Shown here piece after piece: positions 50,001-64,000 of a DNA stretch of 64,000 nucleotides. The stretch is from an uncultured bacterium (GTDB lineage Bacteria; Verrucomicrobiota; Verrucomicrobiia; Verrucomicrobiales; DEV007). Location: assembly GCA_963977015.1 (NCBI GenBank), contig CAXBMO010000004.1, positions 96,001-160,000 on the forward strand, given 5' to 3'. Positions within the stretch are counted from its first letter, which is position 1, and the number at the start of each line of letters is the position of its first letter. Both the position numbers and the translations under genes were made by a program. The notes beneath the pieces are model-generated. The model ran no database searches. It was not told the origin of the DNA and saw only the letters and a program-made list of their open reading frames with translations.

Positions 50001-50469
50001 CTTTCGCGAAGCAAAAAACCTTTTCGACTTTTCCGTCCGCGCCGCAATACAGCACCTGGGCGACCGTGAATCCCTTGTTGGTGTCGGCATTGAAAAAGTA
50101 TCCCAGAAGAATACTGAGATGGCGCCCTTCCTTGCGAAGATACAACGTAGAGGCCTTGTTCTCCGCATCTGAGCTGGCGTGTCCATACGCGCCCATCAGA
50201 TAAGAACGTTCATCCCGCTCGCGCTTCTTCCCGCTCGAACCCGCCGCTACATTGTAGTTCCGGATTCCCGGCCGGACCAACAACGTCAGGATACTATCCA
50301 CCATCGTGGATTTCCCGCTTCCATTCTGACCAATGAGCAGTGACGTCCTGCCATTGGGACGAACGGTATGAATCTGGCCTTTTGAGGAATCAATCGTTCC
50401 CCAGTTCATGATCTGCACTTTATACAGACGATACCCGGGAAGTCCCACCGAAACGAAATTGTCTTCCAT
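47026..50469 (-). CDS. jetC: Wadjet/Mks SMC-like ATPase
   Basis: NWGT, GQNGSGKST Walker A, long coiled coils, DVRRW, SGGEKAKL signature, VVVDEMF Walker B. Confidence 0.88.
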   Translation of the reverse strand: MEDNFVSVGLPGYRLYKVQIMNWGTIDSSKGQIHTVRPNGRTSLLIGQNGSGKSTMVDSILTLLVRPGIRNYNVAAGSSGKKRERDERSYLMGAYGHASSDAENKASTLYLRKEGRHLSILLGYFFNADTNKGFTVAQVLYCGADGKVEKVFCFAKGEKDIAEDFGEIKSIDQIAKKLEARDIKTTKTFAQYHKWLINEANMRPKAMDVFNQTVAVKDIRSLTEFIRGHMLEGQNWKERIDDILNHFQQLSDAHRMLVDAREQSIALQPIAQTGAEYNRLQEELQKREQTEKACDAYFRVKTVDLFTRVREDRLVEGEGISAELELLNRRLDDNEQQIRRLQNDVENAGGERLRSLPFLLEQKQDDSKRRRERADRYRKALQKAGLAGHVGDEATFQSAHESLSALRLSTEQELQTLEEGKLNSAIRAHKLEARRDGMELEIRTLQEQGSNLPDRHQQIRKVICEGLGMSPSELPFAAELIAVKESATAWTGSAESALREFGLSLLVPADRFREVSTFVDQLTPENQTDAMKVSYLRVGEVLPDNVPTIDANDASQLINKLDFKEGHPWIEWIKAELIARYNFKCCESFEEFREVRTMALTADRHVNLGRGWFEKDERELVTNPRHYILGWNNEAKLQVLRKDLAIAEEDLQRLLVEMAQHGDQVTELRGREEAIRRAQEVRVFAEIDHEAVDRELAELRREKEMLETSNEAVSAVTSQLGAATAQKHELKGRESHLIKRLGVLEREISQATSLLESSQRQIQSMSEEGGFEAQKALFPSIEDDLLGAGVILNAETLAEQENHYTADLRQAIDSIRSKLAPVEKSLLQSMSRFLRKFRQFEHELRDDPSYLDDFLNLHVRLEQEDLPKHEGSFKERLNEKVTTEIGILNNQLDNEREEILTRIETLNRCLETIDYDSHDGTYMQLEPKPVRDAEIAEFQRLMRECLADAFEGNTEADEARFARIEGLINRLREDSRWREKVTDVRRWFDFGAQETVRSTGEERGYYSDSMGQSGGEKAKLAFTILVAAVVYQFDIDPEAPQSDKFHFVVVDEMFSKIDDRYAEYALRLFEKFGLQLLIVAPFDAKAKVTEPFVDYYIQVVKKNNRSRILTMTSGEFGDRFGEVTGMAKRSAVPEAPETTASSFTLGS

Positions 50470-50474
50470 GATTT

Positions 50475-51083
50475 CTAGCTTGGTAATTGGTTTTGAGCGG
50501 CAATCGTCTCCGCGTGGATTTGAAATTGCTGTTTCAATTCATCCAATCGTTCGGCGGTGATTCGCGCTTTGATGATTGGTCGAATCTCGTAGGCAACAGG
50601 CTGGGTATTGAGCTTGCGAAGAAACCCGAGTTCCTGCGCCCGCACCATCAACTGATCAAATTTTCGCCGAACCCGAACTTCATCTTCCGTATCGGGAAGC
50701 AACTCCATCATCCGGGTTTGCAACTCTGACGTATCCACCACGCAACGCTCGGAATCGACGTTCTGCTCTTCGAAACGCCGGAGTTCATCGCGCAACATCA
50801 CGCTGAATAAGGTGACGTCGTATCCCAAACGGCTTCTTCGAATCAACTTCGGCATCCCATCATACCCGTCGGGCAATTCCTCTTCCTCAATTTGCCGCAG
50901 ATAAGCAAACCCTTCGGGTTCATCGACGACCATGATCAGTCCGACCCGGCCAAAATAAGTCTCCAGCCTCGATCGATTGGTCATGAGTAAATCCCAGGTT
51001 TTGGAATCATCCGCATAGACCGCTCCTTGGAGGAGACGAATCGCGGGAACACTGGACTCGTGAAATTCAGGAAGGTGAGCCAT
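50475..51083 (-). CDS. jetB: Wadjet KITE subunit (DUF4194-like)
   Basis: IRLLQGAVY, VVDEPEGFAYLRQ, YEIRPIIKA; ~200 aa; lies between jetA and jetC. Confidence 0.85.
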   Translation of the reverse strand: MAHLPEFHESSVPAIRLLQGAVYADDSKTWDLLMTNRSRLETYFGRVGLIMVVDEPEGFAYLRQIEEEELPDGYDGMPKLIRRSRLGYDVTLFSVMLRDELRRFEEQNVDSERCVVDTSELQTRMMELLPDTEDEVRVRRKFDQLMVRAQELGFLRKLNTQPVAYEIRPIIKARITAERLDELKQQFQIHAETIAAQNQLPS

Positions 51084-51151: not shown

Positions 51152-52627
51152 TCAGGACTTGCCAACCGCCGGGCGAAACACCACCCGCGGCACCCGCATC
51201 ACACGGTACCCTCCCTCGGCGCTTTCGTCAGGAAGACGAACTTCGTCCATCTCCTCATCGACAACGACGTGGTCGTCATCCTCTGCAATCTGCACATAGG
51301 CGAGCACCTCGACCGCGCCATTCTCCGGCGGATGATCTTCCAACAGGCGAGGCAGGGAAACGGAATCGACGTGCTTCACCGCATCGCCAATCACATCACG
51401 CATCCCTTTCCAATCCAGGCGCCGCATCTGCGAAAACAAATCAAAGGCTTCGTCCAATTCGTCAGTCCCCGCCTCCGCGACCTGGAGATCCATCGTATCC
51501 ACTTCCGCCGCCGGCGACCAGAACGTCCGGCTAAAGGTCACAAACGGTTTGTAGCCTTCTTCAATGTCCAGGCCGACCACCTCTTCAGGCGGCGCATTCC
51601 GAGCCTGACGCGCCAAATTCAAGACTTCTTCGATCGTGAGCGCGACTTTCCGGCGCTCGTCCGCCACCTTGCCATCGAGGATCCGTCGAATCGACGCCGA
51701 CAGCCGCTGATTCGTCTGCATGACCTGCTCCGCCTCCGCCGTCAGTGCCGGGATCATGTTTCGCAACATCTCCATCTCTTCCTCATCCCCTCCAATCTGT
51801 TCGATCTTCCGCACATTCTCGACCAAATCACGCAGCGTGCGCTGGCGCGAGGGCGATAGAATCAGGTTCACGAAGCCGTAAAAACTCTTCCCCTGGTCGG
51901 AGTCCTTCAAGACCGACTCCGAATTCATCACATACTCCAACAGATCCCCCTTGTTCTCCCCCGCCATCTGCATGTCCTGAACCTGCCGGGTAATTTCCTT
52001 GAACTTGTCTTCCACCTTGCGGAAATCCCCCAAAACACGTTGCAACAGATCCAGCGCAAAATGAAATCGCTCCCGAATCTGGGACTCATCGTAGGTTTTC
52101 GCGTCCCCACTTTGCTGAATCCGATCAATCTCGGCCTGCAATTGGTCGCGCTCTTCGGCCAGCGCCGCCACCTGGCTATCCGCGTCATCGCCCGAAAAAA
52201 TCACCACCTCCCGCAGCGTATCGACGATGGCCAACACGCAACTCTCGGCGCCGACAAACTGATCATCACGCTTCACCGACTCTCTCGCGAATCGCATCGC
52301 AGCCTCGGTATGAGCCGTCAACTGATAGACCGGCTCCTCGCTCGAACCCTGAAAATAACGCTGAAGATACCGCGTCTCCGGTTTGCACCACGCGTTCAGG
52401 TAATCCAGCGGCGCCTCATTCAACGCATCGGGGTGTTGCTCCTGATAATCGGTCAGATCCGCGATCAGTTGATCCTGTGGAATGGTGATCCGTTGCTCCC
52501 GTTTAAACTCCTGATACAGGAAGTGCAGAATGAAGCTCCCATTCTGAGCTCGCAACAAGCGAGTCGTCGGGGATTGGGTCAGAAAAACCTGAAGATCGTC
52601 TAGTTCCACGTTCCGAATTTTTAGCAA
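51152..52627 (-). CDS. jetA: Wadjet kleisin subunit (DUF3375-like)
   Basis: P..RLLRA.N, DFRKVEDKF, SDQGKSF.GF; ~490 aa; first gene of the operon. Confidence 0.85.
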   Translation of the reverse strand: MLKIRNVELDDLQVFLTQSPTTRLLRAQNGSFILHFLYQEFKREQRITIPQDQLIADLTDYQEQHPDALNEAPLDYLNAWCKPETRYLQRYFQGSSEEPVYQLTAHTEAAMRFARESVKRDDQFVGAESCVLAIVDTLREVVIFSGDDADSQVAALAEERDQLQAEIDRIQQSGDAKTYDESQIRERFHFALDLLQRVLGDFRKVEDKFKEITRQVQDMQMAGENKGDLLEYVMNSESVLKDSDQGKSFYGFVNLILSPSRQRTLRDLVENVRKIEQIGGDEEEMEMLRNMIPALTAEAEQVMQTNQRLSASIRRILDGKVADERRKVALTIEEVLNLARQARNAPPEEVVGLDIEEGYKPFVTFSRTFWSPAAEVDTMDLQVAEAGTDELDEAFDLFSQMRRLDWKGMRDVIGDAVKHVDSVSLPRLLEDHPPENGAVEVLAYVQIAEDDDHVVVDEEMDEVRLPDESAEGGYRVMRVPRVVFRPAVGKS

Positions 52628-52765: not shown

Positions 52766-52839
52766 GCGCTCGTAGATCAACTGGATAGATCGTCTGACTA
52801 CGGATCAGAAGGTTGAGGGTTCGAATCCTTCCGAGCGCG
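52766..52839 (+). tRNA. tRNA-Arg (anticodon ACG)
   Basis: Acceptor stem GCGCTCG/CGAGCGC, anticodon arm TCTGA-CTACGGA-TCAGA, T-loop GGTTCGAATCC; followed by CCT rather than CCA. Confidence 0.96.
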
Positions 52840-52891
52840 CCTTTCATTCTCAGGGGGATACGCAGGATCTAAGGGAGCATTCAAAAAGAGG

Positions 52892-53008
52892 GGGACTACA
52901 CCAAGTTTGGGGGATTGCCGTTTTTCATCCGCACTCGGCAATGACGCGCAGGCGGTAGTTGTTAAAGTTTCGGAAGCCGTAGGCACGGCGTTGGATCAGT
53001 TTCAATTC
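52892..53008 (-). pseudogene. ISL3-family transposase C-terminal remnant with probable terminal end
   Basis: Peptide KLIQRRAYGFRNFNNYRLRVIAECG* matches the ISL3 C-terminal K..R.AYGFRN..YRLR motif. GGGACTACACCAAGTTTGGGGG at about 52892-52913 may be the terminal repeat. The rest of the transposase is absent. Confidence 0.75.
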
Positions 53009-53320
53009 CGTCGTAATTTTCTCTACCAGACCACTTGAGAGCTTCTCTGCCTCCTTATTGAGGGGATGCTCTGTAGGTAAGAATATACCGACAGTACTGC
53101 TCAACACCTGGCAAGAGGCTGTTCATGATATTCGTCATTCGAAACGAAGGTGAGTCGCCCATTGCTTTGATTGCTGATTGAATCAGCGTTTCAACCATGG
53201 CAACCTCACTCGTTGCATTGGGATTAGGCGGTTCCTTTGAGTGTTCTACCCTAAGTTCTTGTCCATTGAGCCCCTTCGAAAATTCTTACTTTCATCCGTT
53301 CAATTGGGCAAGATGAGTTC

Positions 53321-56300
53321 TCATCCCACTTCATCTACCTGCGGGCAGGTTGCTTCCAATTTCGAAAAAATCCCCTCAATCACCTGTTCTTTGCCAGTGA
53401 ACACGGCCTCTGGTCCACCCGCGTCCAAATCCGAAAACGGCGATTCGTAAAGCGCTTCCGCTCCCATGACTCCGCGGTGGGTTAGTTGGTCAATAATCAG
53501 TTCAACAAACCGAATCTGATTGGCGGAGAGGCTTCGGTCCCCAAGGAACTCCGCGAAAGCCTGCTGCGCTGCGGTCCGGTCCATTCCGATCAACTTCCGG
53601 ACGAAATGCGGCAATGACGGGGCTTCGCTTTGGGCCAGCAAATCGGACAGCAACCTTTCACCCTGGTCCTCGCCAATCTCCTGCAAGGTTCGCTCCAATT
53701 CCGCAAGATCCAGTGCCGTCATCGGCTGATTGGTTCGCAAGCGGTGAATCACAATGTGATCCAGGTGAGCTTTCAAAAACTCCTTCACTTTCCGTTCATA
53801 TTGCGCCCCGGTCATCTTCGGCACCAAGACCGGTTCTCCTACCCGTACGCCCTGAATTTCGTCTTCGAAATCGGTGTAAACAATCTTGCGCTTTTTCTTG
53901 TCGAGAAACTGAACAAGACCTCGCAGCCGAAGCCGCAACTCCTCCAACAACGCCAGGGTGATGCCTTCCCAGAATTCCGTGGTCTGCACTATCTGCAAAT
54001 ACGCCAATTGCTCTGTTACCGCGGGAATGGCGTCCTTTCCTTCCAGCAACGCGGCAATTTCGATCACCGATAGTCTGATGCTTTCGGAAACACCACTCTT
54101 GTTGGCGACTCCCAGCTGCATTTTCAGCACCTTTAAATCGAACATTCGTGCTTCGATTTCATCGTTCTCGATTTGGCTGGGAAGGTTTGCGATGTCCCGC
54201 TCTAACACGTGCACGTCCCCCTCAGTCAATTGGCCCCAAGATTCCTTTTTCTGGAATCGCTCCACCGGTTCCAGTCGCATCCGAACGATAAAATTTTCGG
54301 GATTCATGGCTGCGACCTCCGCGTGAAGACCGGCTGCCAGCGACTGCGTCAGTTTCCCCTCCGGTTCCAATTCCGATTCCTTCTGCAACGTGGCCAGTAG
54401 CTCCACCCGCGTCTTGAACAGCCGACTCCCGATCGATTCGCCCCCGCGCCCTTCGATCCCGTCTGGATTCTCGCGGAAGAAATCGAAATTGAAACAAAAA
54501 TCGAAGATCCGGAAGTCCTTCTTGTCCTTGTCCGGCTCAAAAAGATTCTCGCAGAGCCGGGTGCCGCGTCCAATCATTTGCCAGAACTTGATCTTCGAGT
54601 AGACCGGCTTGAAAAACACCAAATTCACCACCTCTGGCACGTCAATTCCGGTGTCTAACATATCCACCGAAATCGCAATGTGCGGTTCTTTGTCCTTCAA
54701 CGAAAAATCGTCGATTAGGCTCTGCGGATAGGCCGCCTGGTTGTCAATCACGCGGGCAAAATGCCCCTTGAGTTCTGGATAGTGGTGGTTGAACCGCTCC
54801 TCAATGAACTTCGCTTGATCGTGATTCCGAGCAAAAATAATCGTCTTCCCGAGCCGGTCGCCACTCGCCACCGTATGCCCGCGCTCCATCAGGTGCTGCA
54901 GCACCTTGTCCACCGTGTCAGTGTTGAAGAGCCACTGATTGATCGCCGACGCATTCACGGCCGCCGGCGGGCCGTCATCACCGTCGTCACCCCAATCAAT
55001 CCCCTCCCATTCGGCCTGCTCTTCCTGACTAAGATCGTCATAGCTGATTCCCTCGCGTGGAAACTTCAGATCTACCTGCTCGACTCGCGGTGGCACGAGA
55101 AAGCCGTCACTCACCGCCTGATCCAGTTCATAAGCATCGGTCGGCACCCCTGCTTCCAGATCAAACAGATCGTAGGTGTTTTTATCGATCTCTTCCCGGG
55201 GTGTCGCCGTCAGCCCCAGTAGCAGGGAGTCGAAATACTCGAAGATCGCCCCGTATTTTTGGTAAATGGACCGGTGTGCTTCGTCGATGATCACCAAATC
55301 GAAGTGGCCCGGGCCGAACCGCGCCACCCCGCCCTTGGTTTCGTCGATCAATCCCATCATCGTGGGGTAGGTGCAGACATAGACCCGGCCTTCCTTGTTT
55401 TTCTCGGTCACCAGATTCACCGGGCTGGAATCCGGCAGATGCATTTTGAAGGCGTTTGCTGCCTGGTTCACCAGGGAAATCCGGTCGGCCAGAAACAAGA
55501 CTCGCTTCGCCCAATTGGCCCTCTGCAACACATCGGTCAGGGCGATCGCGGTCCGGGTCTTGCCCGTTCCCGTGGCCATCACCAGCAACCCCTTGCGCTG
55601 ATGCGCGGCGAAGGTGGCTCCAAGGCTCGCGATGGCCCGTTTCTGGTAATAGCGACCCGCGATTTCCTCATTCACCTGGGCCACGTCCAGGGGCTTGCGG
55701 ATCTGGCGGCGCTGCACCAGTCGCTCCAGGTCGTCCTTGCTGTAGAAACCGGCCACGCGCCGCGGCGGATAGGAGCGGTCGTCCCAGATCCAGGTTTCGT
55801 AACCGTTCGTGAAAAAGATCACCGGCCTTTGACCATGCATCTGTTCCAGGCAATCCGCGTAAAGCTTGGCTTGTTGCTGGCCGTTCTTCGGGTCGGCCGT
55901 GGTCCGCTTGGCCTCCACCAATCCGAGCGGCAGCCCGTTGTCGCCCCACAACACGTAGTCGACGAACCCCTTGCCGGGACTGTTCGGCATTCCCGTCACC
56001 GGGTATTCCCGATCCTGCGGCTTTTCCAGGGGCCAACCGGCCCGGCGCAGGTCCACATCGATCAGGTATTTCCGCGTTTCCGCCTCGGAGTAATCATGCG
56101 GATCGCTCTTGGCTTCATTCTCCGCAATGACCTTTGCCAACTCTTCGCGAACGGTTTTCAGCTCGGCGTCCAGCGCGTCAATCTTCTGCTGTTTTTCGAG
56201 AGTCTCGCAGCTCGTCCGCTCCAGTTCCGCCTCCAGCCTGGCCAGTTCTTCGCGGGAGATCGTCGGTTCGCTCACCACAGGTTTCGGCACCAGGCCGTCG

Positions 56301-56710
56301 CTCCAGGCTGCCTCACCGGGATCCGGCTGAGCTTCCCGCGAATAGGTTCGGGCCACCCAATACAGAACATGGTGCAGTTCCTGCACCACCCGCAGGGCAT
56401 CACCTTCACCTACTGGCCGGGGATTGTGCGCCGCTGCATTGCCCATCTTGTGAATGACCCGCGCTTTCTGAAACACCGCCTCCGGCAACACGCGCCGAAA
56501 GCTCGGCTCGTAGAGAAACGCCCCCAGGTTCCGGTCATAGGGCCGCTTCAGCCGCTGGTCGAAGCGAAAGAGCCAGTGAATCGTTGTCTCCAGGGCGAAC
56601 CGGGCGTGAAAACAGGAGGCCCGCGCGTCTGCAAGAGCCTGCCGCTCCGCCTTCATCGCCGCTTCGGCCAATTCGGGGAACTCAGTTTCGAGAAAGGCGA
56701 AGTTTGACAT
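53321..56710 (-). CDS. hsdR: Type I restriction endonuclease subunit R (EcoAI/EcoEI-like)
   Basis: MSNFAFL N-terminus, DYVLW...VEAKR nuclease motif, MATGTGKT, DEAHRS, TATP, QMIGRGTR, LYESPF C-terminal domain. Confidence 0.94.
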   Translation of the reverse strand: MSNFAFLETEFPELAEAAMKAERQALADARASCFHARFALETTIHWLFRFDQRLKRPYDRNLGAFLYEPSFRRVLPEAVFQKARVIHKMGNAAAHNPRPVGEGDALRVVQELHHVLYWVARTYSREAQPDPGEAAWSDGLVPKPVVSEPTISREELARLEAELERTSCETLEKQQKIDALDAELKTVREELAKVIAENEAKSDPHDYSEAETRKYLIDVDLRRAGWPLEKPQDREYPVTGMPNSPGKGFVDYVLWGDNGLPLGLVEAKRTTADPKNGQQQAKLYADCLEQMHGQRPVIFFTNGYETWIWDDRSYPPRRVAGFYSKDDLERLVQRRQIRKPLDVAQVNEEIAGRYYQKRAIASLGATFAAHQRKGLLVMATGTGKTRTAIALTDVLQRANWAKRVLFLADRISLVNQAANAFKMHLPDSSPVNLVTEKNKEGRVYVCTYPTMMGLIDETKGGVARFGPGHFDLVIIDEAHRSIYQKYGAIFEYFDSLLLGLTATPREEIDKNTYDLFDLEAGVPTDAYELDQAVSDGFLVPPRVEQVDLKFPREGISYDDLSQEEQAEWEGIDWGDDGDDGPPAAVNASAINQWLFNTDTVDKVLQHLMERGHTVASGDRLGKTIIFARNHDQAKFIEERFNHHYPELKGHFARVIDNQAAYPQSLIDDFSLKDKEPHIAISVDMLDTGIDVPEVVNLVFFKPVYSKIKFWQMIGRGTRLCENLFEPDKDKKDFRIFDFCFNFDFFRENPDGIEGRGGESIGSRLFKTRVELLATLQKESELEPEGKLTQSLAAGLHAEVAAMNPENFIVRMRLEPVERFQKKESWGQLTEGDVHVLERDIANLPSQIENDEIEARMFDLKVLKMQLGVANKSGVSESIRLSVIEIAALLEGKDAIPAVTEQLAYLQIVQTTEFWEGITLALLEELRLRLRGLVQFLDKKKRKIVYTDFEDEIQGVRVGEPVLVPKMTGAQYERKVKEFLKAHLDHIVIHRLRTNQPMTALDLAELERTLQEIGEDQGERLLSDLLAQSEAPSLPHFVRKLIGMDRTAAQQAFAEFLGDRSLSANQIRFVELIIDQLTHRGVMGAEALYESPFSDLDAGGPEAVFTGKEQVIEGIFSKLEATCPQVDEVG

Positions 56711-56792: not shown

Positions 56793-57998
56793 TCATTTTT
56801 GCAAAAGGGGAGCAAATCGTTGTTCGAGAGTCCTTCGATTGTAGCGGCTGAGTGCAGGGCGGTTTGCCCACGCAGCATGAACATGCCTCCGCCATTCCCC
56901 TCGCGGTTGACGTTGAATCGAACCCATACTGAAAAGGCTTTGCTCAATTTGTTCACCTGACTTCCCAAGCTTTGAGGCAAGATCATCAATTACCTGGCAG
57001 TAAAGTTCGTAGTTAAAACCGGTGTTCAGTTGGCCAGGTCCCTGGTCCGTATGACGGATGAGATTCTCGCCAGTAAGCAAGATGACGGACTTTGTCGTCC
57101 ACTGATCCATAATGTAGTGATTCTTAGGGCCGAAGAAATAAAGGAGCTTGGTAAAGAATGCGGGGCCCAAACCGGGGATGTTGGCATTGCCAGCAAAGAG
57201 GTCATAAGCCTCGGCACGGCTGAGTTTACAATCCCGTAGCTTGATCAGCTTGCCCCGAATGGCACGCCTCGCATTCCAAGCCTTCTGGGCGTTCTCGGCT
57301 CCCCCCGGTCCCAACCCCTGACCACCCCAAGCCATTGCACAGATGTAGCCGAATAGCGGATCCTTCTCGGTGTTGCTGCAATGCTGGCGAACGTCATGTC
57401 GGGCGAGTTGATCGACTGGAAAAGGACCCAATTGCGAAACCTCCTCTAGCTCTAAGTCTTCCACCCATTGCGCGGGAACGTCACCGATTCTTCCCTGCAT
57501 GAGGAAGGGCGCTTTTCGAAAAGCTTCAAAATGCTCCGGGTCGTAGAAAAAATTCGTGGCTTCTCCGCCATCCGCCTCCGCCATCGTTTCAAATGTCCAT
57601 GGCACGAACTCCCCAGACGGCTGTCCCCGGAAGAGATTCACCATGGATTCGCGGAACGATTTGTCTTTTGCCAACTTCCGGGTGGAACTCGAGATCTCGC
57701 TCCGACTGCGCAAATCTGGATCGAGAACGTCAATAGCGACTAACTCGGCCGCCTCACGTCTCCCGTTGTCGTCAAAGCCCGGTTCCGTCCACCAGATCAC
57801 CCTGGCGACGAGATCCGGATTGAGCGAAACCGCTGCCGATTTGCTGGTGATGCTGCTGCCGCGGTGAATCAAGTGCTGCTCGATCCGGCGGCGGAGATTC
57901 TTGCCCATCTCAACGTAGACCACACGTTCCTGGCCATCGAGCATCGCATAGATTCCCGGTAGCGTGGGGATGGAGGTAAGCTGGAACGAAGTGGACAT
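56793..57998 (-). CDS. Fusion: GIY-YIG-like domain + OGG-fold (HhH) DNA glycosylase-like domain
   Basis: N-terminal PGIYAM...VVYVEMGKNLRRRIEQH; C-terminal AMAWGG, IPGLGPAFFTKLLYF (HhH + Lys), YIMDQW (Asp), YELYC, IEQSLF. Confidence 0.75.
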   Translation of the reverse strand: MSTSFQLTSIPTLPGIYAMLDGQERVVYVEMGKNLRRRIEQHLIHRGSSITSKSAAVSLNPDLVARVIWWTEPGFDDNGRREAAELVAIDVLDPDLRSRSEISSSTRKLAKDKSFRESMVNLFRGQPSGEFVPWTFETMAEADGGEATNFFYDPEHFEAFRKAPFLMQGRIGDVPAQWVEDLELEEVSQLGPFPVDQLARHDVRQHCSNTEKDPLFGYICAMAWGGQGLGPGGAENAQKAWNARRAIRGKLIKLRDCKLSRAEAYDLFAGNANIPGLGPAFFTKLLYFFGPKNHYIMDQWTTKSVILLTGENLIRHTDQGPGQLNTGFNYELYCQVIDDLASKLGKSGEQIEQSLFSMGSIQRQPRGEWRRHVHAAWANRPALSRYNRRTLEQRFAPLLQK

Positions 57999-58019: not shown

Positions 58020-59153
58020 TCAAACTCGAACCAACTCCATGAGCGGTTCAAACCGATAAATTGCGGCTTTCCTCCCTGACGCCTCTTCAACGGTCTGAAG
58101 AATCTCCTCCTGCAGAAGCAGCCGGGTGAATCGGGCTGCCGTCTGGGCGGGAATTCCGGCGTTCCCGGTAAACCGGCTATTGCGAAAAACCGGATACGTG
58201 AAAACAAAATCAAGGGCATTCACCGACCACTTCGACGCCAGCAATTCAGAAAAACGCCCTTTCATATCCTCGTAAAGCGACCTGACCTTTTCGGCGACTT
58301 CCAGATTGTGAATCGCCTGCTTTTCCACTGCCGTTAGGAAAAAAATACACCAGTCGTCCCAGGCCCCCTTTGCCGAAACGTCGCGCATGGTCGCAATGTA
58401 GGCGTCCTTGTGATCTTCGAAGTAACGGCTGATGTAAAAATGGGGGGCCGCAATGGCTCCCTTTGCCCACAGCATCAGCGTGATCAGCATCCGCCCGACC
58501 CGGCCATTTCCGTCCTTAAACGGGTGCAGCGCCTCAAACTCGACATGACAAAGGGCAGCGCGCAAAAGGATTGGCATTTTCTCATCCTCAACCATGGCAA
58601 CCAGCGCATCCATACCGCTCTCAAGCTTTTCAGGCGCAATTGGCACGAAACTGACCTCTCGGCGGCCCCGCTCTCCGATATAATTCTGCTCGGCCTTGAA
58701 CGCACCGGGAGACTTGCTCGCTCCGCGTCCGAAAGACAGAAGTTGTTGATGAATACTCTTCAGCAACGAGATGGACAGCGGCCGCCCCTCGTCCATCTGC
58801 CGCTGCGCGACGCGAAGCGACCGCTGGTAGAGAACCGTCTCGATCACGTCAGATCGAGATTTCGAAGCCGAGGCCACCTCGTCACCATACTCAGCCTCGT
58901 ATTGAAGGATCTCGTCCAGCGTGCTGATCGTTCCCTCCATTCGTGAGGAGATCACCGCCTCTTGATTGCGCAGGGGTGCGAGGAAGATTTCGCTGTTGTG
59001 CAGCCCCTTTAGCATCTGGTCATAGCGCGCCAAGGAGTCGGTTGCCGCCAGCAGCGCCGACAAAATTCGCCCATAATCGAGCGACTCGGGTGGAAACTCC
59101 CCATCGTGATACCAAACGGCTTTGGACGTATCGAAGTTCATGTTCGGCTTCAT
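58020..59153 (-). CDS. fic: Fic family protein (class II, autoinhibited) with C-terminal HTH
   Basis: HPFKDGNGRVGR catalytic motif; SSRMEG inhibitory motif; start may be 59153, 59141 or 59165. Confidence 0.92.
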   Translation of the reverse strand: MKPNMNFDTSKAVWYHDGEFPPESLDYGRILSALLAATDSLARYDQMLKGLHNSEIFLAPLRNQEAVISSRMEGTISTLDEILQYEAEYGDEVASASKSRSDVIETVLYQRSLRVAQRQMDEGRPLSISLLKSIHQQLLSFGRGASKSPGAFKAEQNYIGERGRREVSFVPIAPEKLESGMDALVAMVEDEKMPILLRAALCHVEFEALHPFKDGNGRVGRMLITLMLWAKGAIAAPHFYISRYFEDHKDAYIATMRDVSAKGAWDDWCIFFLTAVEKQAIHNLEVAEKVRSLYEDMKGRFSELLASKWSVNALDFVFTYPVFRNSRFTGNAGIPAQTAARFTRLLLQEEILQTVEEASGRKAAIYRFEPLMELVRV

Positions 59154-59243
59154 TTTTAATACCAAACTCGGTTGTTGTCGAAATTCTTGGACATTTAAAC
59201 ATTAAATCCGATCGAAGTTCATTGGTGATTGCCAGGGAGCGTT

Positions 59244-59432
59244 GATGTTAACGGGTGGCGAAAAATGAGAGACAAACTCGTTTGGCGTTCATGGTGGAAC
59301 ATCAATCTTCTTTGGCATCAAGATTCTCGAAAGTTTGATCATCGACACCTTTTGAGGCTCTCCCATGAAGGCCAAACGACTTCGATGTTAATAATCTAAT
59401 AAAAATGAGAGACAAACCCACTTGATGCTCAT
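59244..59432. repeat. Imperfect direct repeat, 140-bp period
   Basis: AAAAATGAGAGACAAAC identical at 59261-59277 and 59401-59417; both copies are preceded by GATGTTAA at the same offset. Confidence 0.75.
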
Positions 59433-59550
59433 TCTTGTCCTCCAAATTCGGTGCGAACCTCAAATCTCGCCGTTCGTCGAGGGTGCGAAATTGGAAGGAG
59501 CGAAGGGAATGTTTAGCTCGGCGAAGTGGGCTTGATGAACCAACGCCCTC

Positions 59551-60783
59551 CTAACCATGCCCCATCTCCTTGTGGTTGCCAATCGACAGCGCTTCCCAGG
59601 TGCCGTCGGGCTCCCGACGAAAGTGAGCCCGGAAGTTTTGGTTCACCCTGACCGACCACACATCATTTCCTCCCTTGGGCCACTTCTTGAAATCGGCTCC
59701 CGGTGTGATGGCCGCCTGAAGCTGTGATTTTTTCCGCTCCCAGGCATCCTGAATCGGTGGGGCGAGTTTGCGCAGCTTGCGCTGAAAATCACCGGATTCC
59801 ACGATTTCCTCCAAGTGACCGAACAGATCCAGGCAGCCTTCCAGAATCCCAAGTCGTTCTCCATCGTGAACGAGGTGGATGGGGCAGTAGCGCCAGTCGA
59901 TCCGGGGATGGATCGGGAACTGCCGCGGCCAATCCCAGCCGCCGCCCCGGTCTCCGAGATGGGGATTCGCCTTTCCCGTTTCGGAAAGGGCCCGGTAGCC
60001 TTCTGCCAGTTCCGTGAGATTGCGATCCCAGCCTTCCTTCTCGACATCGAGACCATCGCAGTAGCCTATCGGCTGGCCCCGAACAAATCCTTTCAGAGCC
60101 TCCTGCTTCCCGCGCACCTCCAGTGATCGTTTCCGAGTCCGGAACGCCTTGAGCATGTAGGCGTTCGCCAATTTTTCCTCTTCTTCACAGTAGCCGGGGT
60201 AATCCTCGAAAAACGCTTCCTTGGCCGGTCCCCACCATGGCTCCTGGAAAACCAATTCCATCTGGGCCACCGCGTAGTCCGTGGCAAAGTGAAACAGCTC
60301 ATGGTTGAGGATCGCGTGAAAGGCGAGGTGTGCCTTGGTCTTGTCTGTTGCCGGTAGGCCGCCGAAGGCATGCTTCATGAGGTAGGCAATCCCGGAAACC
60401 GGCACGTAAACGCCCCACTGCAATCCGGTCACGTGAAACGAGGAATACCAACCGACCGCATCCATCCCGTGGATTTCCACGCTTTTCCGGATCCGTTCCT
60501 CTTCTTCGCCATCCAGCGCCGGAAAAGTTTCTTCCGCCTCGGCTCCGATCTCGATCACCGGCTCAAAATCCGGAACCGACCCATCCGACTCCTGCTGCTC
60601 GTCGAAATCGTCACCATCCCACACGGAAAGAGGAGCTTCGCAGGTTTTTTCGGTCTCCGCGCCGGATAACGTGGTCACCGCCACCCTTGGTTCAGGACCG
60701 CGATTCTCGAACTCCGGCGATTCATCGAACAGCGCTCCCTCGATATCCTGCAAACTGTTGCGGACGCTGGTGATCAGTTTCAT
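59551..60783 (-). CDS. Fusion: acidic N-terminus + HExxH metallopeptidase-like domain + RelE/ParE-like C-terminal domain
   Basis: ILNHELFHF, then EEKLANAY; last ~85 aa read FQRKLRKL...DVWSVRVNQNFRAHF...WEALSIGNH; AAGGA RBS just after the upstream stop. Confidence 0.7.
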   Translation of the reverse strand: MKLITSVRNSLQDIEGALFDESPEFENRGPEPRVAVTTLSGAETEKTCEAPLSVWDGDDFDEQQESDGSVPDFEPVIEIGAEAEETFPALDGEEEERIRKSVEIHGMDAVGWYSSFHVTGLQWGVYVPVSGIAYLMKHAFGGLPATDKTKAHLAFHAILNHELFHFATDYAVAQMELVFQEPWWGPAKEAFFEDYPGYCEEEEKLANAYMLKAFRTRKRSLEVRGKQEALKGFVRGQPIGYCDGLDVEKEGWDRNLTELAEGYRALSETGKANPHLGDRGGGWDWPRQFPIHPRIDWRYCPIHLVHDGERLGILEGCLDLFGHLEEIVESGDFQRKLRKLAPPIQDAWERKKSQLQAAITPGADFKKWPKGGNDVWSVRVNQNFRAHFRREPDGTWEALSIGNHKEMGHG

Positions 60784-60789
60784 TTCCTT

Positions 60790-62610
60790 TTAAGCCTCCT
60801 CCACCTCATCCTCCGCCACTCCTAGCTCGGATACAATCGCTCCCTTTCCCGTCGAGTTTTCCACCAAATCGAGAAGCGCGGCTTTCCGTGCCCGGTAGAA
60901 CCCATCGAAATCATCCGCTCGCAGGAACCTCGGCTCGATGCAGTGGGTGCGAAGAATCGAGTCCATCGCGTCGTCGTCGAGTTGGACTCCCTTGTGGGTC
61001 TGGATTTGCTCCAGGTAATGCGACGGGGCGTTGCCGCCGATCATCCGGTTGGCCTTGGCGGAGATGGCCGTCTTGTTGATGATGGAATTGTAGATCCGGG
61101 GTGAAATCCCCCGATCGTCGCACCACTTCCGGGGAAAGATGTGATGGATGTCGATTCCCCGCTCGTTGAGGTCCAGATCCAGCATCCTGGTCTTCCAGAA
61201 GAAGTCGCAGGCTCCCTGCTGCTGCACCAGCACATACAGACCCCGGTAGGCAGCGGAATTCCGCGTCCTCAAGGTATCGAGGCGCGACTCCTGGAACCCG
61301 GAGGCAACCACGGTCACCGGTTCCTCGACGACGTCTCCGGTCAACCAATCCATCAGGTTCTGGTAGTCCAGGGCGATCCTCGTTTCCACCGCGCCGCCAT
61401 ACATTTCCCCCAAAACCCCACACCAAAACCAGCGCGCCAGCCGGTCCTGGATGGCCGGTTCCAGCCAGCGTTCTTTCAAGTGGGTCAGGACCGTGGCCAG
61501 GGGCACCAATTGGCTGCGATAGGGAAGAAACCGTTGATGATGGAATCCCAGCATCCTCAGAAACTGTTCCGCTTCCAGGAACCCGCCGGTCAGGGGCTCC
61601 GTCCATCGCTGGTAGGCCGGCAGCGGCGTGGAAAGGACGTGCTCGCGTTTCGCGCTGACCGTGGTGGCTTCCTTCGGTTTCTTTCCGGCAGCCAAATCAG
61701 CCAGCCTTCGTTCCCGGGAATCGAGCAGGGCGATTCCCTGAAGGAAATCGGTCGGCTCCAGGTCGGTGAGGATGGACTTGGCCGCCAGCTTCGCTTTCCG
61801 TCCCGTTCCCGCAGGCTCGCCGAACCAGTCCTTCCGCATGTTGTAGCCGTCCGCCGCATAGCTGGCCGTGACCAGCTCAAAGACGGAGAGCGCCACCCCA
61901 CCGGTGTTCACCTTTTCAAACACCAGGCAAACGGCCTCCTTGGAGGTTTCCTTTTTGAGGAGAATGACCGGGATCATGTAGCCTCGGAATGCGGCGAGAA
62001 CTTCCTTCCGAAAGGTCATGTAGGTCGAGAACCGTTCCGGAAACCGTTCATTGAGCCCTTCTTCCCATGCGTCGGAATCCAGGATCTGGCTGCAGGGGAA
62101 GCACATCGCCTCGTATTCCTTTTCCGGGCTGCTCAGATCCAGGTCAATCTGCCGCCCGAAATCCGACCGCAGGGTTTTCCGTTCGTCCACAGCGATGATG
62201 GCGGCTTCCAGGGATTGCGGTCCCTCCAGCGCCTTGGCGATGTCGAAGTAGTAGTGCCGTTTGATCGGTCGCTTGTTGTCGTCCCGAGTGGCGACCGGCC
62301 CATCGCCTTTCACCACCTGGGTCAGGGAGGTGAGCCGCTGCTGGCCGTCGAGGATGAGGCGTTCCGCGTCTGAGCCGGGAGACAAGGTGACGCCTTCGAC
62401 CGGCCGGAGCTGAAATCGCGTTTCTCCTCCCGTTTCCAGAATCATGACCGCGCCAATCGGAAAGGAACGGGCGATGCTGACGAGGAGGGAACGAATATGC
62501 TCGTCATCCCAAACCCAGCCGCGCTGAAAGTCCGGCAGTTGGATCTTGCCCTCCACGATGTCGTCGAGGAGGTCGCTGAGCTTGAGCTTGGTGGAGTCGA
62601 AGGTGGACAT
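60790..62610 (-). CDS. DUF262 + C-terminal HNH (GmrSD-like) protein
   Basis: LPDFQRGWVW, LDGQQRLT and FEKVNTGG (DUF262); DIHHIFP...NKTAISAKAN (His-Me finger). Confidence 0.87.
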   Translation of the reverse strand: MSTFDSTKLKLSDLLDDIVEGKIQLPDFQRGWVWDDEHIRSLLVSIARSFPIGAVMILETGGETRFQLRPVEGVTLSPGSDAERLILDGQQRLTSLTQVVKGDGPVATRDDNKRPIKRHYYFDIAKALEGPQSLEAAIIAVDERKTLRSDFGRQIDLDLSSPEKEYEAMCFPCSQILDSDAWEEGLNERFPERFSTYMTFRKEVLAAFRGYMIPVILLKKETSKEAVCLVFEKVNTGGVALSVFELVTASYAADGYNMRKDWFGEPAGTGRKAKLAAKSILTDLEPTDFLQGIALLDSRERRLADLAAGKKPKEATTVSAKREHVLSTPLPAYQRWTEPLTGGFLEAEQFLRMLGFHHQRFLPYRSQLVPLATVLTHLKERWLEPAIQDRLARWFWCGVLGEMYGGAVETRIALDYQNLMDWLTGDVVEEPVTVVASGFQESRLDTLRTRNSAAYRGLYVLVQQQGACDFFWKTRMLDLDLNERGIDIHHIFPRKWCDDRGISPRIYNSIINKTAISAKANRMIGGNAPSHYLEQIQTHKGVQLDDDAMDSILRTHCIEPRFLRADDFDGFYRARKAALLDLVENSTGKGAIVSELGVAEDEVEEA

Positions 62611-62627: not shown

Positions 62628-63764
62628 CTAAAGTTCTCCGTTAAAGGCGCGGGATTGGAGGGAGGCGAAAAGGGTGTCCAGTTCGGCGAGATGGGCGCGC
62701 AGGCGGGCTTTCTGGCGCTCGACCGATTCGACGACGGCGGCGAAGCTGTGTTGGAGGTCGAGGGGCGGCGTAGGGATTGGTAGCTTCTTCACATCGCCGA
62801 GATTGATTCCTCGAACTGCAATTCCTTTCGTCCTGCGCGCCATGTAGTGCTGCATCCCTTGAGTCGTGATGCACTGCATGACGTAGGCTGCTTCAGCTTC
62901 CGCCAAAGCGAGTCGGGCCGTATCTTGGGTAATATTAGCGCCTTCGGCATCATGCGGGGTTATCGCCATCCGACCAACGTGGCCCCTGATCGACATGAGT
63001 AGATCACCGGGCTTAAGACGCGACCGATTGTATTGATTCGCAATTTCTACCGTGGTTCTTCGGAGTTGGTTAACTAGCACTTGCTCATTCTTAATGTCGA
63101 CGACTCGCACATAGGGAATTCCGTCTTCAATATCCGGGCCCGGTTTAAGAATTCCGTAGGTGATTGGCCGATTCGGATCGATCAGCTTCTCCAGCGGAGC
63201 GTTCTCCCACCCCATCGGATTGGTGACGGGGTCGCCGAAGAGGGTGAGGAAGGTGGATTGGAGGAGGGTGTCGAGCTGGGCGAGGGACTCGCGGCGCTTG
63301 GCCCGCAAGGCGTCCGCCGCATCCAGGATCCCCGCAATCCGCTTCTGCTCGGCGAGGGGCGGGAGGGGGATTTGGATTCGGCTCGCTCCTGCCTTCGTAA
63401 GCTTTGCACGGGTCGTGCCGGTGAGCTGTGGTGTTACGTCAAGGTGCTTCAGCACAAGACATAGATAATCGAGATCTGTGCCGGACTTGGGCCGCAAGAC
63501 ATGTGCATGGTTGTTTACCCACGTTTTGCCGCTGATTTTATACGCGATGCCCCGGTTCGGTTCGAAGAAGTGTCCACCATCCTCAGCGAGAAGGACCAGC
63601 GGTTCATCGAAGATGAAGCCGTCGATGGTCCCCTGTTGCCCGTTCGCTCCAAAGTATGGGTATGGACCGGGATTTCGGTCGGCAGCTTTCACAGGACGCC
63701 TTTGGGAGTCAAGAAACTCAACCGCCTGTCCCAAAGTTGTAAGCGCAGTCGGAACTTCGCTCAT
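62628..63764 (-). CDS. hsdS: Type I R-M specificity subunit
   Basis: Two variable TRDs separated by conserved IPLPPLAEQKRIA...F..LFGDP and PTPPLDLQ...SLQSRAFNGEL; ATG overlaps the hsdM stop (ATGA). Confidence 0.93.
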   Translation of the reverse strand: MSEVPTALTTLGQAVEFLDSQRRPVKAADRNPGPYPYFGANGQQGTIDGFIFDEPLVLLAEDGGHFFEPNRGIAYKISGKTWVNNHAHVLRPKSGTDLDYLCLVLKHLDVTPQLTGTTRAKLTKAGASRIQIPLPPLAEQKRIAGILDAADALRAKRRESLAQLDTLLQSTFLTLFGDPVTNPMGWENAPLEKLIDPNRPITYGILKPGPDIEDGIPYVRVVDIKNEQVLVNQLRRTTVEIANQYNRSRLKPGDLLMSIRGHVGRMAITPHDAEGANITQDTARLALAEAEAAYVMQCITTQGMQHYMARRTKGIAVRGINLGDVKKLPIPTPPLDLQHSFAAVVESVERQKARLRAHLAELDTLFASLQSRAFNGEL

Positions 63765-64000
63765 CCTAACTTCCCCTCCAGCTCCTTCCGCCCTTTGGTG
63801 ATCTCTTCTTCCAGCTTCGCCAGCCGCTCCAGAATCACCCCCGGCGGATCGTATTCGACCGCTTCGTATTCCACCTCCTTGTAGCGGTTGATCGAGAGGT
63901 CGTAGTCGTTGCCTGCGATCTCGTCCTTCGGCACGAGGAAGCTCTGGTCGGTGCGTTTCCGCTTTTTCTCGGCCTTGCGGTTCTTCCACCGGGCCAGGAT
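63761..64000 (-). CDS. hsdM: Type I R-M methyltransferase subunit, C-terminal 79 aa (partial)
   Basis: Manual translation ...RKRTDQSFLVPKDEIAGNDYDLSINRYKEVEYEAVEYDPPGVILERLAKLEEEITKGRKELEGKLG*, a typical HsdM C-terminus. Confidence 0.88.
   Translation of the reverse strand: MLARWKNRKAEKKRKRTDQSFLVPKDEIAGNDYDLSINRYKEVEYEAVEYDPPGVILERLAKLEEEITKGRKELEGKLG

Follow-up and report, generated by a model that had tools for sequence, protein, structure and literature searches.

A verrucomicrobial single-gene protein joining a zincin-like module to a RelE/ParE-fold domain, a candidate protease-gated defence toxin

The 410-aa gene and its locus

We analysed a stretch of 64,000 nucleotides (nt), here called the window, from an uncultured bacterium of the Verrucomicrobiales (GTDB lineage DEV007; assembly GCA_963977015.1, contig CAXBMO010000004.1, positions 96,001 to 160,000), and focused on one of its reverse-strand genes, which encodes a protein of 410 amino acids (aa) within a type I restriction-modification (R-M) island. 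A preliminary description of this gene had read the product as a metallopeptidase fused to a RelE/ParE-like toxin behind an acidic N-terminus, with proteolysis releasing the toxin upon a phage trigger. Its observations were confirmed by the present analysis, and its interpretation was supported in part. The full-length AlphaFold2 (AF2) model of the protein shows four parts (predicted local distance difference test, pLDDT, 80.6; predicted template modelling score, pTM, 0.79), and these are listed with the neighbouring genes in Table 1.

Table 1. Parts of the 410-aa gene and surrounding features, with positions in the window
Feature	Position	Strand	Remarks
Whole gene, 410 aa	59551..60783	-	ATG start, TAG stop; latch, acidic loop, zincin-like module and RelE/ParE-fold domain (predicted parts)
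Residues 1-41, conserved N-terminal helix and extended segment	60661..60783	-	Modelled docked on the peptidase module
Residues 42-71, acidic loop of variable length, predicted disordered	60571..60660	-	pLDDT 31-38
Residues 72-95, conserved acidic segment (FDPxFExGAExDE..LGG) leading into the peptidase module	60499..60570	-	
Residues 96-321, zincin-like (gluzincin-type) metallopeptidase module	59821..60498	-	Assigned from model and motif
HELFH, residues 161-165, predicted zinc-binding and catalytic motif	60289..60303	-	
EEKLANA, residues 202-208, predicted third zinc ligand, next-but-one helix	60160..60180	-	
Residues 322-410, RelE/ParE-superfamily (BECR-fold) toxin domain, as predicted	59554..59820	-	Ends HKEMGHG
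DUF262/GmrSD-like gene, 606 aa, upstream context	60790..62610	-	Pfam GmrSD_N E 2.4e-30; PADLOC PDC-M55C, HEC-05
HsdS, type I R-M specificity subunit, context	62628..63989	-	Pfam Methylase_S; PADLOC Specificity_I E 5e-66
HsdR, type I R-M restriction subunit, context	53321..56710	-	Pfam ResIII, HSDR_N, EcoEI_R_C; PADLOC REase_I E 6e-183
SoFic-type Fic/DOC gene, full-length, directly downstream of the 410-aa gene	58020-59165	-	PADLOC SoFic E 2.5e-101
tRNA-Arg(ACG), abuts the island	52766-52841	+	Separates the R-M island from Wadjet

The genes of the type I R-M operon follow the order hsdS, DUF262, 410-aa gene, SoFic-like, OGG-like and hsdR, and the ATG of the 410-aa gene lies 6 nt past the end of the DUF262 gene, so the tight coupling of these two genes noted in the preliminary description holds within the window. 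The absence of a separate adjacent antitoxin gene was likewise borne out, with DUF262 upstream and, downstream, a gap of 385 nt whose two small open reading frames (ORFs) have no Pfam match. A scan of positions 58900-61000 for promoters and terminators gave one promoter-like site (0.8 expected) and three terminator-like sites (2.5 expected), and Rfam found tRNA only over the window. Scans of the 410-aa protein itself against Pfam, NCBIfam and PADLOC returned no family.

A zincin-like module occupies the middle of the protein

The preliminary description had proposed HELFH and the downstream EEKLANA as a gluzincin-like metal site; both motifs were confirmed, HELFH at exactly the position it had given. 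Their sites are invariant: H161, E162, H165, E176, E202, E203 and Y241 are the same in 58 of 58 aligned relatives (alignment A7, reaching down to about 20% identity), and A206 and N207 are at least 90% conserved. One further relative, at locus L039 and included in profile A2, has D in place of E162. In the model, HELFH 161-165 lies within the helix formed by residues 147-179 and the EE pair (202-203) within the helix 200-213. Residues 96-321 are mainly helical in the full-length model, and a domain-only AF2 model of them, built with 58 sequences, reached a pLDDT of 92.4 and a pTM of 0.90.

The module was compared with solved structures by VIA-align. The best match was oligoendopeptidase F (2h1j_A; Z 5.8, root-mean-square deviation (rmsd) 4.1, 126 residues aligned), followed by dipeptidyl peptidase (DPP) III (5zum_B; Z 5.7, rmsd 5.2, 163 aligned) and by tricorn F3 (1z1w_A) and 3cmn, both at Z 5.0. 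Among the 50 rows listed, 30 are zinc metallopeptidases by title, drawn from M1, M2, M3, M9, M13, M30, M32, M49, MATCAP and ArdC. Since the motif residues are invariant in 58/58 relatives and zinc peptidases stand among the top structural rows, we assign residues 96-321, as modelled, to a zincin-like module of the gluzincin type without a close solved relative. No Pfam family matched the module in any of 33 alignment members; a Pfam scan of these members at E<=10 gave scattered chance matches, plus HigB-like and ParE_like in one or two members.

The layout HExxH...E-x-x-A-N, with the second motif about 30-37 residues after HExxH, resembles that of ImmA/IrrE (M78). We compared the module with 12 true M78 domains collected from related genomes. 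The alignment by hhalign placed the motifs in register with the E-x-E-A-N of ImmA/IrrE, but at a probability of 8.7% (E 0.0038), and PF06114 matched 0 of the 33 members at E<=10, so membership in ImmA/IrrE (Peptidase_M78, COG2856) was not supported. The window's genome has no M78 match, and true M78 genes occur in 16 of 41 related genomes. The Pfam scan also found no helix-turn-helix (HTH) domain in the 410-aa protein. In the ORFs flanking the family at 53 other loci, HTH genes were limited to L001 (HTH_17, three ORFs upstream), L027 (HTH_3, opposite strand) and L048, where HTH_37 pairs with a Gp49 toxin gene two ORFs upstream of the family gene. HicB identity of the module was rejected: hhalign of A7 against 10 HicB domains (PF15919) gave a probability of 0.3%, and the window's genome has no PF15919 match. 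HicB appears in the structural match lists of neither the module nor the C-terminal domain, an absence that by itself carries no weight.

The C-terminal domain is modelled as a RelE/ParE fold

Residues 322-410, which contain WSVRVNQNFRAHF...SIGNH, had been described as a basic domain with a RelE/ParE-like pattern, and both parts of this statement held. The 89 residues carry a net charge of +3 in the window protein and of +3 to +10 in homologues, and in the model they form a small alpha/beta domain with the RelE/ParE fold, its N-terminal helices packing on an antiparallel sheet of three to four strands. The best VIA-align match is RelE of Thermus thermophilus (2khe; Z 11.8, rmsd 1.9 Å, 80 residues aligned), followed by YafQ (4q2u_B; Z 11.2, rmsd 2.5, 84 aligned), 1wmi_C (Z 10.7) and YoeB (2a6q_E; Z 10.1). 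HP0892-type toxins and archaeal RelE are also among the matches, and ParE chains score lower, at Z 9.1-9.5. All 17 chains at Z of at least 8 are RelE/ParE-type toxins by title. Foldseek matched the domain with a probability of 1.00 and a template modelling (TM) score by target of 0.70-0.74, and the RelE domain of Cami1 (PDB 8phb/8phj) aligned over 82 residues at Z 7.8 and rmsd 2.6. These structural matches settle the predicted fold of residues 322-410 as RelE/ParE (BECR).

Sequence comparison gave more distant relations. For a profile of 21 diverse C-terminal domains (A3), the one significant match among solved chains was Txp40, in its C-terminal domain (PDB 7xbj; E 2.3e-6, structural Z 7.7), with weaker matches to YoeB (E 0.3) and RelE3 (E 0.71). 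PHROG 1213, annotated as 'RelE-like toxin', weakly matches residues 330-406 (E 0.0039), and the Pfam family HigB-like_toxin matches the window protein below threshold (E 0.02). The C-terminal profile also found ParE_like domains over the Pfam cut-off in two related genomes (L101, L102). The one at L101 (G018:C452, 1501-1758, minus strand; 28.7 bits) lies at the N-terminal end of a UvrD-like helicase longer than 600 aa, a further multidomain use of the RelE/ParE toxin fold.

F333, R379, R385, W396 and H404 are invariant in all 21 diverse C-terminal sequences, and K366, H387 and H409 in the 33 closer homologues. R379, R385 and H404 may correspond to the catalytic residues of RelE, YoeB and YafQ. 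Because ribonuclease (RNase)-type chains rank first among the structural matches and the Arg/Arg/His set is conserved, RNase activity appears more likely than gyrase poisoning for the modelled domain. A search for short stand-alone relatives of residues 318-410 yielded three candidates, none of which scored; this word-based search is insensitive, so stand-alone forms may still exist.

The N-terminal segment is predicted to dock on the peptidase-like module

The acidic N-terminus of the preliminary description was found as reported, with 27 D/E against 5 K/R in residues 1-95 (net -22), and it is a property of the family: 33 of 33 aligned homologues are net negative in the same region, from -6 to -22 with a median of -14. 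The region is composite. At its start lies the consensus MKxISxIRxxLxxIxGAL..PP, with M1, R8, L11, I14, P23 and G29 at least 90% conserved and residues 1-20 at a pLDDT of about 90 in the full-length model. The acidic linker that follows spans 43-73 residues in the 33 homologues, with a net charge of -4 to -15 and no conserved sequence. In the segment leading into the module, P75 and E78 are again at least 90% conserved, and a strand (76-79) and a helix (81-84) are modelled at pLDDT 53-68.

We modelled residues 1-45 and residues 96-410 as two chains, both being pieces of one protein. The complex obtained an interface score (ipSAE) of 0.76, against 0.00 for the best of three controls. The 0.76 mark is reached by 116 of 157 solved complexes and by 2 of 215 mismatched pairs, an approximate comparison given the custom alignment used here. 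At least 80% of the contacts were shared between runs, and the pLDDT of the partner was at least 71. Confident contacts fall on residues 112-123, 126, 128, 170-193, 290 and 296-308, and none on 322-410. Residues 17-19 pair with 116-118 on the edge strand of the sheet, and the helix 4-14 packs against the HExxH helix at residues 170-182. It is between these two elements, edge strand and HExxH helix, that zincins have their substrate groove. The model supports, without proving, binding of residues 1-45 to the peptidase module beside these two elements, and in this predicted arrangement the N-terminus looks like a cis latch or a pro-peptide-like plug. A similar short N-terminal helix was seen by eye in relatives whose C-terminal tails are HicA- or DUF4160-like. 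From the latch contacts and from this helix in relatives with other tails, we conclude that the N-terminus belongs with the peptidase rather than with the toxin.

The preliminary description had proposed that the acidic region masks the toxin or mimics DNA. This was not supported, since residues 1-45 are modelled on the peptidase module without a confident contact in the RelE domain, and residues 42-71 are predicted to be disordered; these disordered residues themselves might still mask the toxin.

The core is constant and the toxin tail is exchangeable

Relatives at weaker loci share the same core (DALAWYxPFH, WGIY, HExFH, EEALANA, QPxGY) and end in different C-termini. At L029 and L034-L037 the tail carries HxxPPHxH and its top Pfam match is DUF4160 (E 3.4e-4 to 0.011), a family that L030 matches weakly (E 0.45). 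At L038 and L040 the top match of the tail is HicA_toxin, over positions 2-57 of 58 (E 0.0032 and 0.024). These tail assignments all lie below Pfam cut-offs, yet the same family is the top match each time, in 2/2 HicA-type and 6/6 DUF4160-type tails. Bacillota and archaeal members have other RelE/ParE-like tails, matching ParE_toxin (E 3.5e-4, L039), ParE_like (E 0.0019) and YafQ (E 0.011); across relatives, the matches to these three families are sub-threshold at E 3.5e-4 to 0.012, and the best sub-threshold match of L031 is ParE_like. The ESM Atlas provided an independent lead towards the same view. HicA_toxin is found in 41% of the members of a cluster of 388-aa proteins (score 0.89) and in 14% of those of a 343-aa cluster, and models from the latter could be aligned with the core at residues 96-321 (TM score 0.74 by query).

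A maximum-likelihood tree of the core domain was built from 58 rows, and the tail types of its clades were read by hand. The tree contains a split supported at 97/88 between 45 rows with the '...GHG' RelE type, including the window protein, and 13 rows that comprise the HicA pair (100/100), the DUF4160 clade (98/94) and a Bacillota/archaeal clade (95/81). As the tail types follow the clades, the tails are likely to have changed a few times, early in the history of the family. From these sequence comparisons, the peptidase-like module is the constant part of the family, and the putative C-terminal toxin (RelE/ParE-, HicA- or DUF4160-like) is the exchangeable one.

The family is widespread and patchily distributed

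The 410-aa protein has 208 relatives at 90% clustering, and at 50% identity 722 cluster representatives match at E<=1e-3 and 371 at <=1e-10. Nearly all of these relatives measure about 400-430 aa, and they are called 'hypothetical protein' almost throughout in their sources. When one genome of each prokaryotic species was scanned with a sequence pattern, 41 loci were obtained, which by record titles fall into Verrucomicrobiota, Planctomycetota, Acidobacteriota, Pseudomonadota, Nitrospirota, Actinomycetota, Bacillota and several archaeal groups. A scan of metagenomes added 46 loci, including one whose gene is the same as that of the window (100% identity). In viral contigs, 71 candidate stretches matched the pattern and none was a relative. 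Within the same order, the full-length gene was present in 1 of 61 genomes, the window's own, as a single copy. This patchy spread fits a horizontally moving accessory gene.

A profile of the whole family found nothing below E 0.4 among PDB sequences, and the second homologue search (profile A2) returned mostly the close family again and no Pfam partners. Copies that are split, frameshifted or devoid of the toxin tail were found at L007, L011, L012, L023, L026, L032 and L059; the one at L011 ends after residue ~320, and the one at L023 retains just the final ...ALGHG. Such broken copies reflect either gene decay or errors in the assembly of metagenome-assembled genomes (MAGs). The family is thus widespread, unnamed and covered by no curated model.

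Relatives lie at the 3' ends of unrelated defence operons

We scanned two to three ORFs on each side of the family gene, covering 123 ORFs from 30 genome loci and 80 of the 85 ORFs from 23 metagenome loci, and the key neighbours were named by PADLOC. The ORFs left out of the metagenome scan were four of L055, which has the layout of L006, and one of L064; intergenic distances depend on the starts of the longest ORFs. No neighbour or partner gene is conserved across these 53 other loci. In a co-directional position, 0-40 nt behind another gene, the family follows HsdS (L001, L044), HsdR (L003) and, in the window, DUF262. At the same distance it follows DruE3, itself after DruH3, in a Druantia III system of the cultured Alteromonas arenosi ASW11-36 (L014), QatD after QatA-C (L017), and a small ORF behind a type III methyltransferase and restriction endonuclease (L010). 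In a Zorya I system (L045) it lies 259 nt behind ZorD1, after ZorB1 and ZorC1.

Elsewhere the neighbours are HsdM and HsdS (L002), a HEC-05 DUF262 gene (L009), a ThsA-like SIR2 gene with NERD (L075), a KAP/PifA-like nucleoside triphosphatase (L049), a methyl-directed restriction endonuclease with a C5 methylase (L050), DrmE_C with HNH (L080), and Schlafen-type helicase and AlbA_2 domains (L004, L071). UvrD/GajB-like helicases (L017, L039, L051), other toxin-antitoxin (TA) pairs (L048, L065) and insertion sequence (IS), ArdC or intron genes (L006, L025, L054, L071) were also found. In total, recognisable defence or mobile-element genes are present at no fewer than 20 of the 53 loci. The family therefore sits at the 3' ends of many unrelated defence operons and has no conserved partner. 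The defence-type setting proposed earlier was upheld by these neighbours. Co-occurrence with DUF262 and hsd genes, which had been suggested as a check, is limited: hsd genes flank 4 of the 53 other loci (L001, L002, L003, L044) in addition to the window, and a DUF262 gene is near one (L009), so the DUF262 coupling seen in the window is not a conserved link.

One subfamily (L019, L021, L022, L025) has a conserved downstream ORF of about 195 aa with no Pfam match and 65-96% identity between copies, which is absent from the window and from its closer relatives. These ORFs start about 40-100 nt before the stop of the family gene. Copies from MAGs assigned by label to Gemmataceae and to Acetobacteraceae share 96% identity, pointing to either a recent transfer or a mistake in binning.

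Other genes of the island

To the left of the R-M island lies a Wadjet system with JetC (47026-50469), JetB (50475-51083) and JetA (51152-52627; PADLOC E 3e-297, 2e-48 and 7e-101, respectively). JetD was not identified, as the two large ORFs past JetC (44569-46569 and 43040-44506) have no PADLOC match. Between the tRNA gene and hsdR, a 60-aa ORF on the minus strand (52925-53107) ends in ...RAYGFRNFNNYRLRVIAECG, which looks like the C-terminal end of an IS transposase of the ISL3 type and may be a remnant at the island border.

Inside the hsd operon, a 401-aa gene (56793-57998, minus strand) has a weak N-terminal GIY-YIG match (E 0.071) together with an OGG-like domain of the 8-oxoguanine-glycosylase type (PF21790, E 2.3e-21), an unusual passenger between the Fic gene and hsdR. 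At the Zorya locus L045, an ORF with a Fic-like C-terminal domain likewise follows the family member. For the DUF262 protein, Pfam finds GmrSD_N alone; its C-terminal DIHHIFPRKW...N...N weakly matches the HNH region of Cas9 (PADLOC E 0.073), and the protein is probably, by its sequence, a GmrSD-like enzyme that is complete but has diverged in its His-Me finger. In HsdR, which is long (1129 aa), the HSDR_N nuclease domain is preceded by a coiled-coil stretch and, at the N-terminus, by DUF4145 (E 1.9e-8).

Proposed mechanism and alternative explanations

The putative toxin domain and the second domain are carried by one monocistronic product with no conserved partner, which is the arrangement of fused toxin-antitoxin and abortive-infection proteins. 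We propose, with confidence slightly short of even, that the 410-aa protein is a single-chain fused toxin-regulator defence protein in which an RNase directed at translation is gated by a latch-plugged peptidase. In the resting state, the N-terminal latch would occupy or cover the peptidase cleft, and the toxin domain would be inactive within the intact chain. A cue from infection, perhaps acting on the exposed acidic loop or by displacing the latch, would free the peptidase, which might then cut either its own chain (at the latch, the loop or the interdomain linker 305-325) or another substrate. The RelE-type domain would thereupon cleave mRNA on the ribosome, so that translation and phage growth stop.

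Several points weigh against this proposal. The case for a protease-gated defence toxin draws on sequence comparison, predicted structure and gene context. No VIA-align match of the module reaches Z 8, and Foldseek found nothing for it at E<=0.001 in the PDB (best E 1.4) or among the viral BFVD models; with fold matches this weak, the term zincin depends on motif invariance and on the enrichment of peptidases among weak matches. The confident latch contacts do not include residues 161-165, and the latch could be a permanent structural part of the domain. For the toxin domain of the window protein, all Pfam and PHROG matches fall below curated cut-offs, and among more distant matches ParE_like is the sole family over its cut-off, which leaves room for a gyrase poison instead of an RNase. 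The RelE domain of Cami1 is active while fused, as far as its published account goes (PMC11229360), so that release by cleavage is not required. There is also no PADLOC model for the 410-aa protein, and some loci have housekeeping or unannotated neighbours alone (e.g., L008/L059, L013, L031, L033 and L068).

The Cami1 case leads to an alternative without cleavage, in which the module acts in cis as an antitoxin and sensor. It would restrain the toxin by contact, and a phage protein binding to the module or to the acidic loop would lift this restraint by an allosteric effect of the kind seen in CapRel(SJ46) or Cami1. The metal site would serve binding or would cut another substrate, and the chain would stay intact. 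We judge this main alternative to be rather unlikely. In its favour, the HicA-tailed cousins in Class 13 of HicBA were published with the N-terminal part as the antitoxin and with CapRel and EzeT as models (PMC10865869, in the text available), the fused RelE of Cami1 works on the ribosome (PMC11229360) and is a structural match at Z 7.8, and the full-length pTM of 0.79 indicates a defined two-domain arrangement. Under this alternative, however, one module must neutralise three unrelated toxin folds by direct contact, and the invariance of HExxH, E176 and EE in 58 sequences argues for catalysis over mere binding; the profile comparison with HicB (PF15919), at 0.3% probability, also speaks against it. 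A different objection concerns the nature of the effector. The C-terminal domain may be no RNase at all, and instead a ParE-type gyrase poison or a non-catalytic ribosome- or RNA-binding handle that delivers the peptidase as the true effector; Lit is an example of a peptidase that targets a translation factor. ParE_like as the only family over the cut-off (L101, L102) and the best sub-threshold match at L031, together with ParE structures at Z 9.1-9.5, fit this explanation, but RelE, YafQ, HP0892-type toxins and YoeB outrank ParE (Z 10.1-11.8), Arg379, Arg385 and His404 are invariant, and the alternative HicA and DUF4160 tails are effector-like toxin domains, as expected if the toxin is the effector. 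We consider it very improbable.

The remaining alternatives retain the toxin and assign it another role or another silencer. As an addiction or stabilisation module, the gene would be a selfish fused toxin-antitoxin that retains an island or mobile element and senses no phage. The island lies beside a tRNA gene and IS remnants, relatives have IS110, ArdC and other TA pairs nearby, and seven copies are split or truncated, all of which would suit such a module. A single polypeptide nevertheless lacks the differential stability of two products that classical addiction needs, and the repeated occurrence behind defence operons, at their 3' ends, suggests a role in defence, which makes an addiction module improbable in our estimation. 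A guard of the PrrC type would be kept latent through contact with an R-M or other complex and would fire once that complex had been put out of action by an anti-restriction protein of a phage; DNA-binding surfaces are a possible target of the acidic loop. The gene does lie between hsdS and hsdR, like prrC, and type I R-M genes flank the window, L001, L002, L003 and L044. Against this, hsd linkage is seen at just 4 of the 53 other loci, and the rest have Druantia, Zorya, Qat, type III R-M or no recognisable system. Given such varied neighbours, no single partner complex can be the silencer. The protein also has no ABC-ATPase domain, and we give the guard explanation little chance.

Returning to the protease-gated toxin, a broader version of this proposal takes in the whole family, and we regard it as possible but doubtful. 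The window protein would belong to the RelE-armed branch of a widespread class, not recognised before, of protease-gated immune toxins built as one chain. In these, a new zincin, plugged by its N-terminal latch and bearing an acidic loop that evolves fast and serves as bait, would detect a phage factor and then arm by proteolysis the RNase fused to it (RelE, HicA or DUF4160), forming a portable second line at the 3' end of almost any defence operon. CapRel-type fusions show that a single chain can sense phage and kill translation. If the proposal is true, a built-in zinc peptidase with a cis latch would be a new control principle, and a function would be given to a conserved domain found in 722 cluster representatives outside the Pfam, NCBIfam and PADLOC models. 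The 'very long HicB' of Class 13 HicBA would be reinterpreted as a peptidase-like module, and one shared regulator would link the RelE, HicA and DUF4160 toxins. By following type I and type III R-M, Druantia, Zorya and Qat operons, the family would be a candidate backup layer in defence islands.

Comparison with known systems

No described peptidase-RelE fusion was found in literature searches. An account of RelE/ParE multidomain toxins that starts from Pfam (Gerdes 2025, PMC11980606) has no mention of peptidase in its available text, and its three supplementary files (4.18 million characters, stored text possibly incomplete) contain no HELFHF, EMGHG or LANAYM. Among latent RNases associated with R-M, PrrC of the EcoprrI type Ic system resembles the window protein in that its gene lies between type I R-M genes (PMC1484252, as available in part). 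PrrC differs in having an ABC-ATPase regulatory domain and in being described as always linked to R-M, whereas the window protein has no ATPase domain and hsd genes flank 4/53 other family loci; on these two grounds, a PrrC/RloC-type R-M-linked RNase was rejected. The C-terminal domain of Txp40 matches that of the window protein in both sequence profile and structure, but Txp40 itself is secreted as an insecticidal toxin of 40 kDa and its N-terminal part is unrelated.

Closer in architecture are fusions with a regulatory domain. CapRel(SJ46) and EzeT, as presented in the text available of PMC10865869, likewise unite a toxin and a cis-acting regulatory domain, possibly a phage sensor, in one polypeptide, but with other folds, other toxin chemistry and regulators that have no catalytic peptidase site. 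Cami1 is a CARF-RelE fusion and an effector of type III CRISPR, which according to the available part of PMC11229360 acts on the ribosome without being cut loose. Its RelE domain is a structural match to the window's C-terminal domain; its sensor is a CARF domain that binds cyclic oligoadenylate, and its gene belongs to a CRISPR locus, whereas the window family has a zincin-like module and no conserved signalling system nearby.

A control principle akin to the one proposed here was put forward for separate genes. Genes of COG2856 (ImmA/IrrE) and Xre were linked with RelE and PIN toxins and proposed as a three-component system (Makarova et al. 2009, PMC2701414, as far as its text was available). 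There too an HExxH peptidase with the same motif layout is tied to a RelE-family toxin, and a signal-activated protease was proposed to control the toxin. That system comprises two or three genes and an Xre/HTH protein, whereas the window family is one chain without an Xre/HTH domain.

The nearest published relatives are the 'Class 13' fused HicBA proteins (Gerdes 2024, mBio, PMC10865869), as described in the text available. These proteins of 340-440 aa were interpreted as carrying an N-terminal antitoxin, either a very long HicB or an RNase H-like one, and a role in phage defence was suggested for them, with CapRel and EzeT as models. The main text, so far as accessible, has no occurrence of peptidase, protease, zinc, metallo or HExxH. 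Like the 410-aa family, Class 13 is encoded by single genes whose products have a largely helical N-terminal part and a toxin domain at the C-terminus, and two rows of the accessible Table S1 show by eye core motifs (DALAWY.P.H, LHEAFHH, EEALACA and PPSYR) that are shared with the present family and with L038 and L040. The toxin is HicA there and a RelE/ParE-fold domain in the window protein. What is new in the present family is a peptidase-like module without a curated family, whose HicA-bearing cousins had been catalogued without the metal site being noted; the kind to which the protein belongs, fused single-gene toxin-regulator defence proteins, is known.

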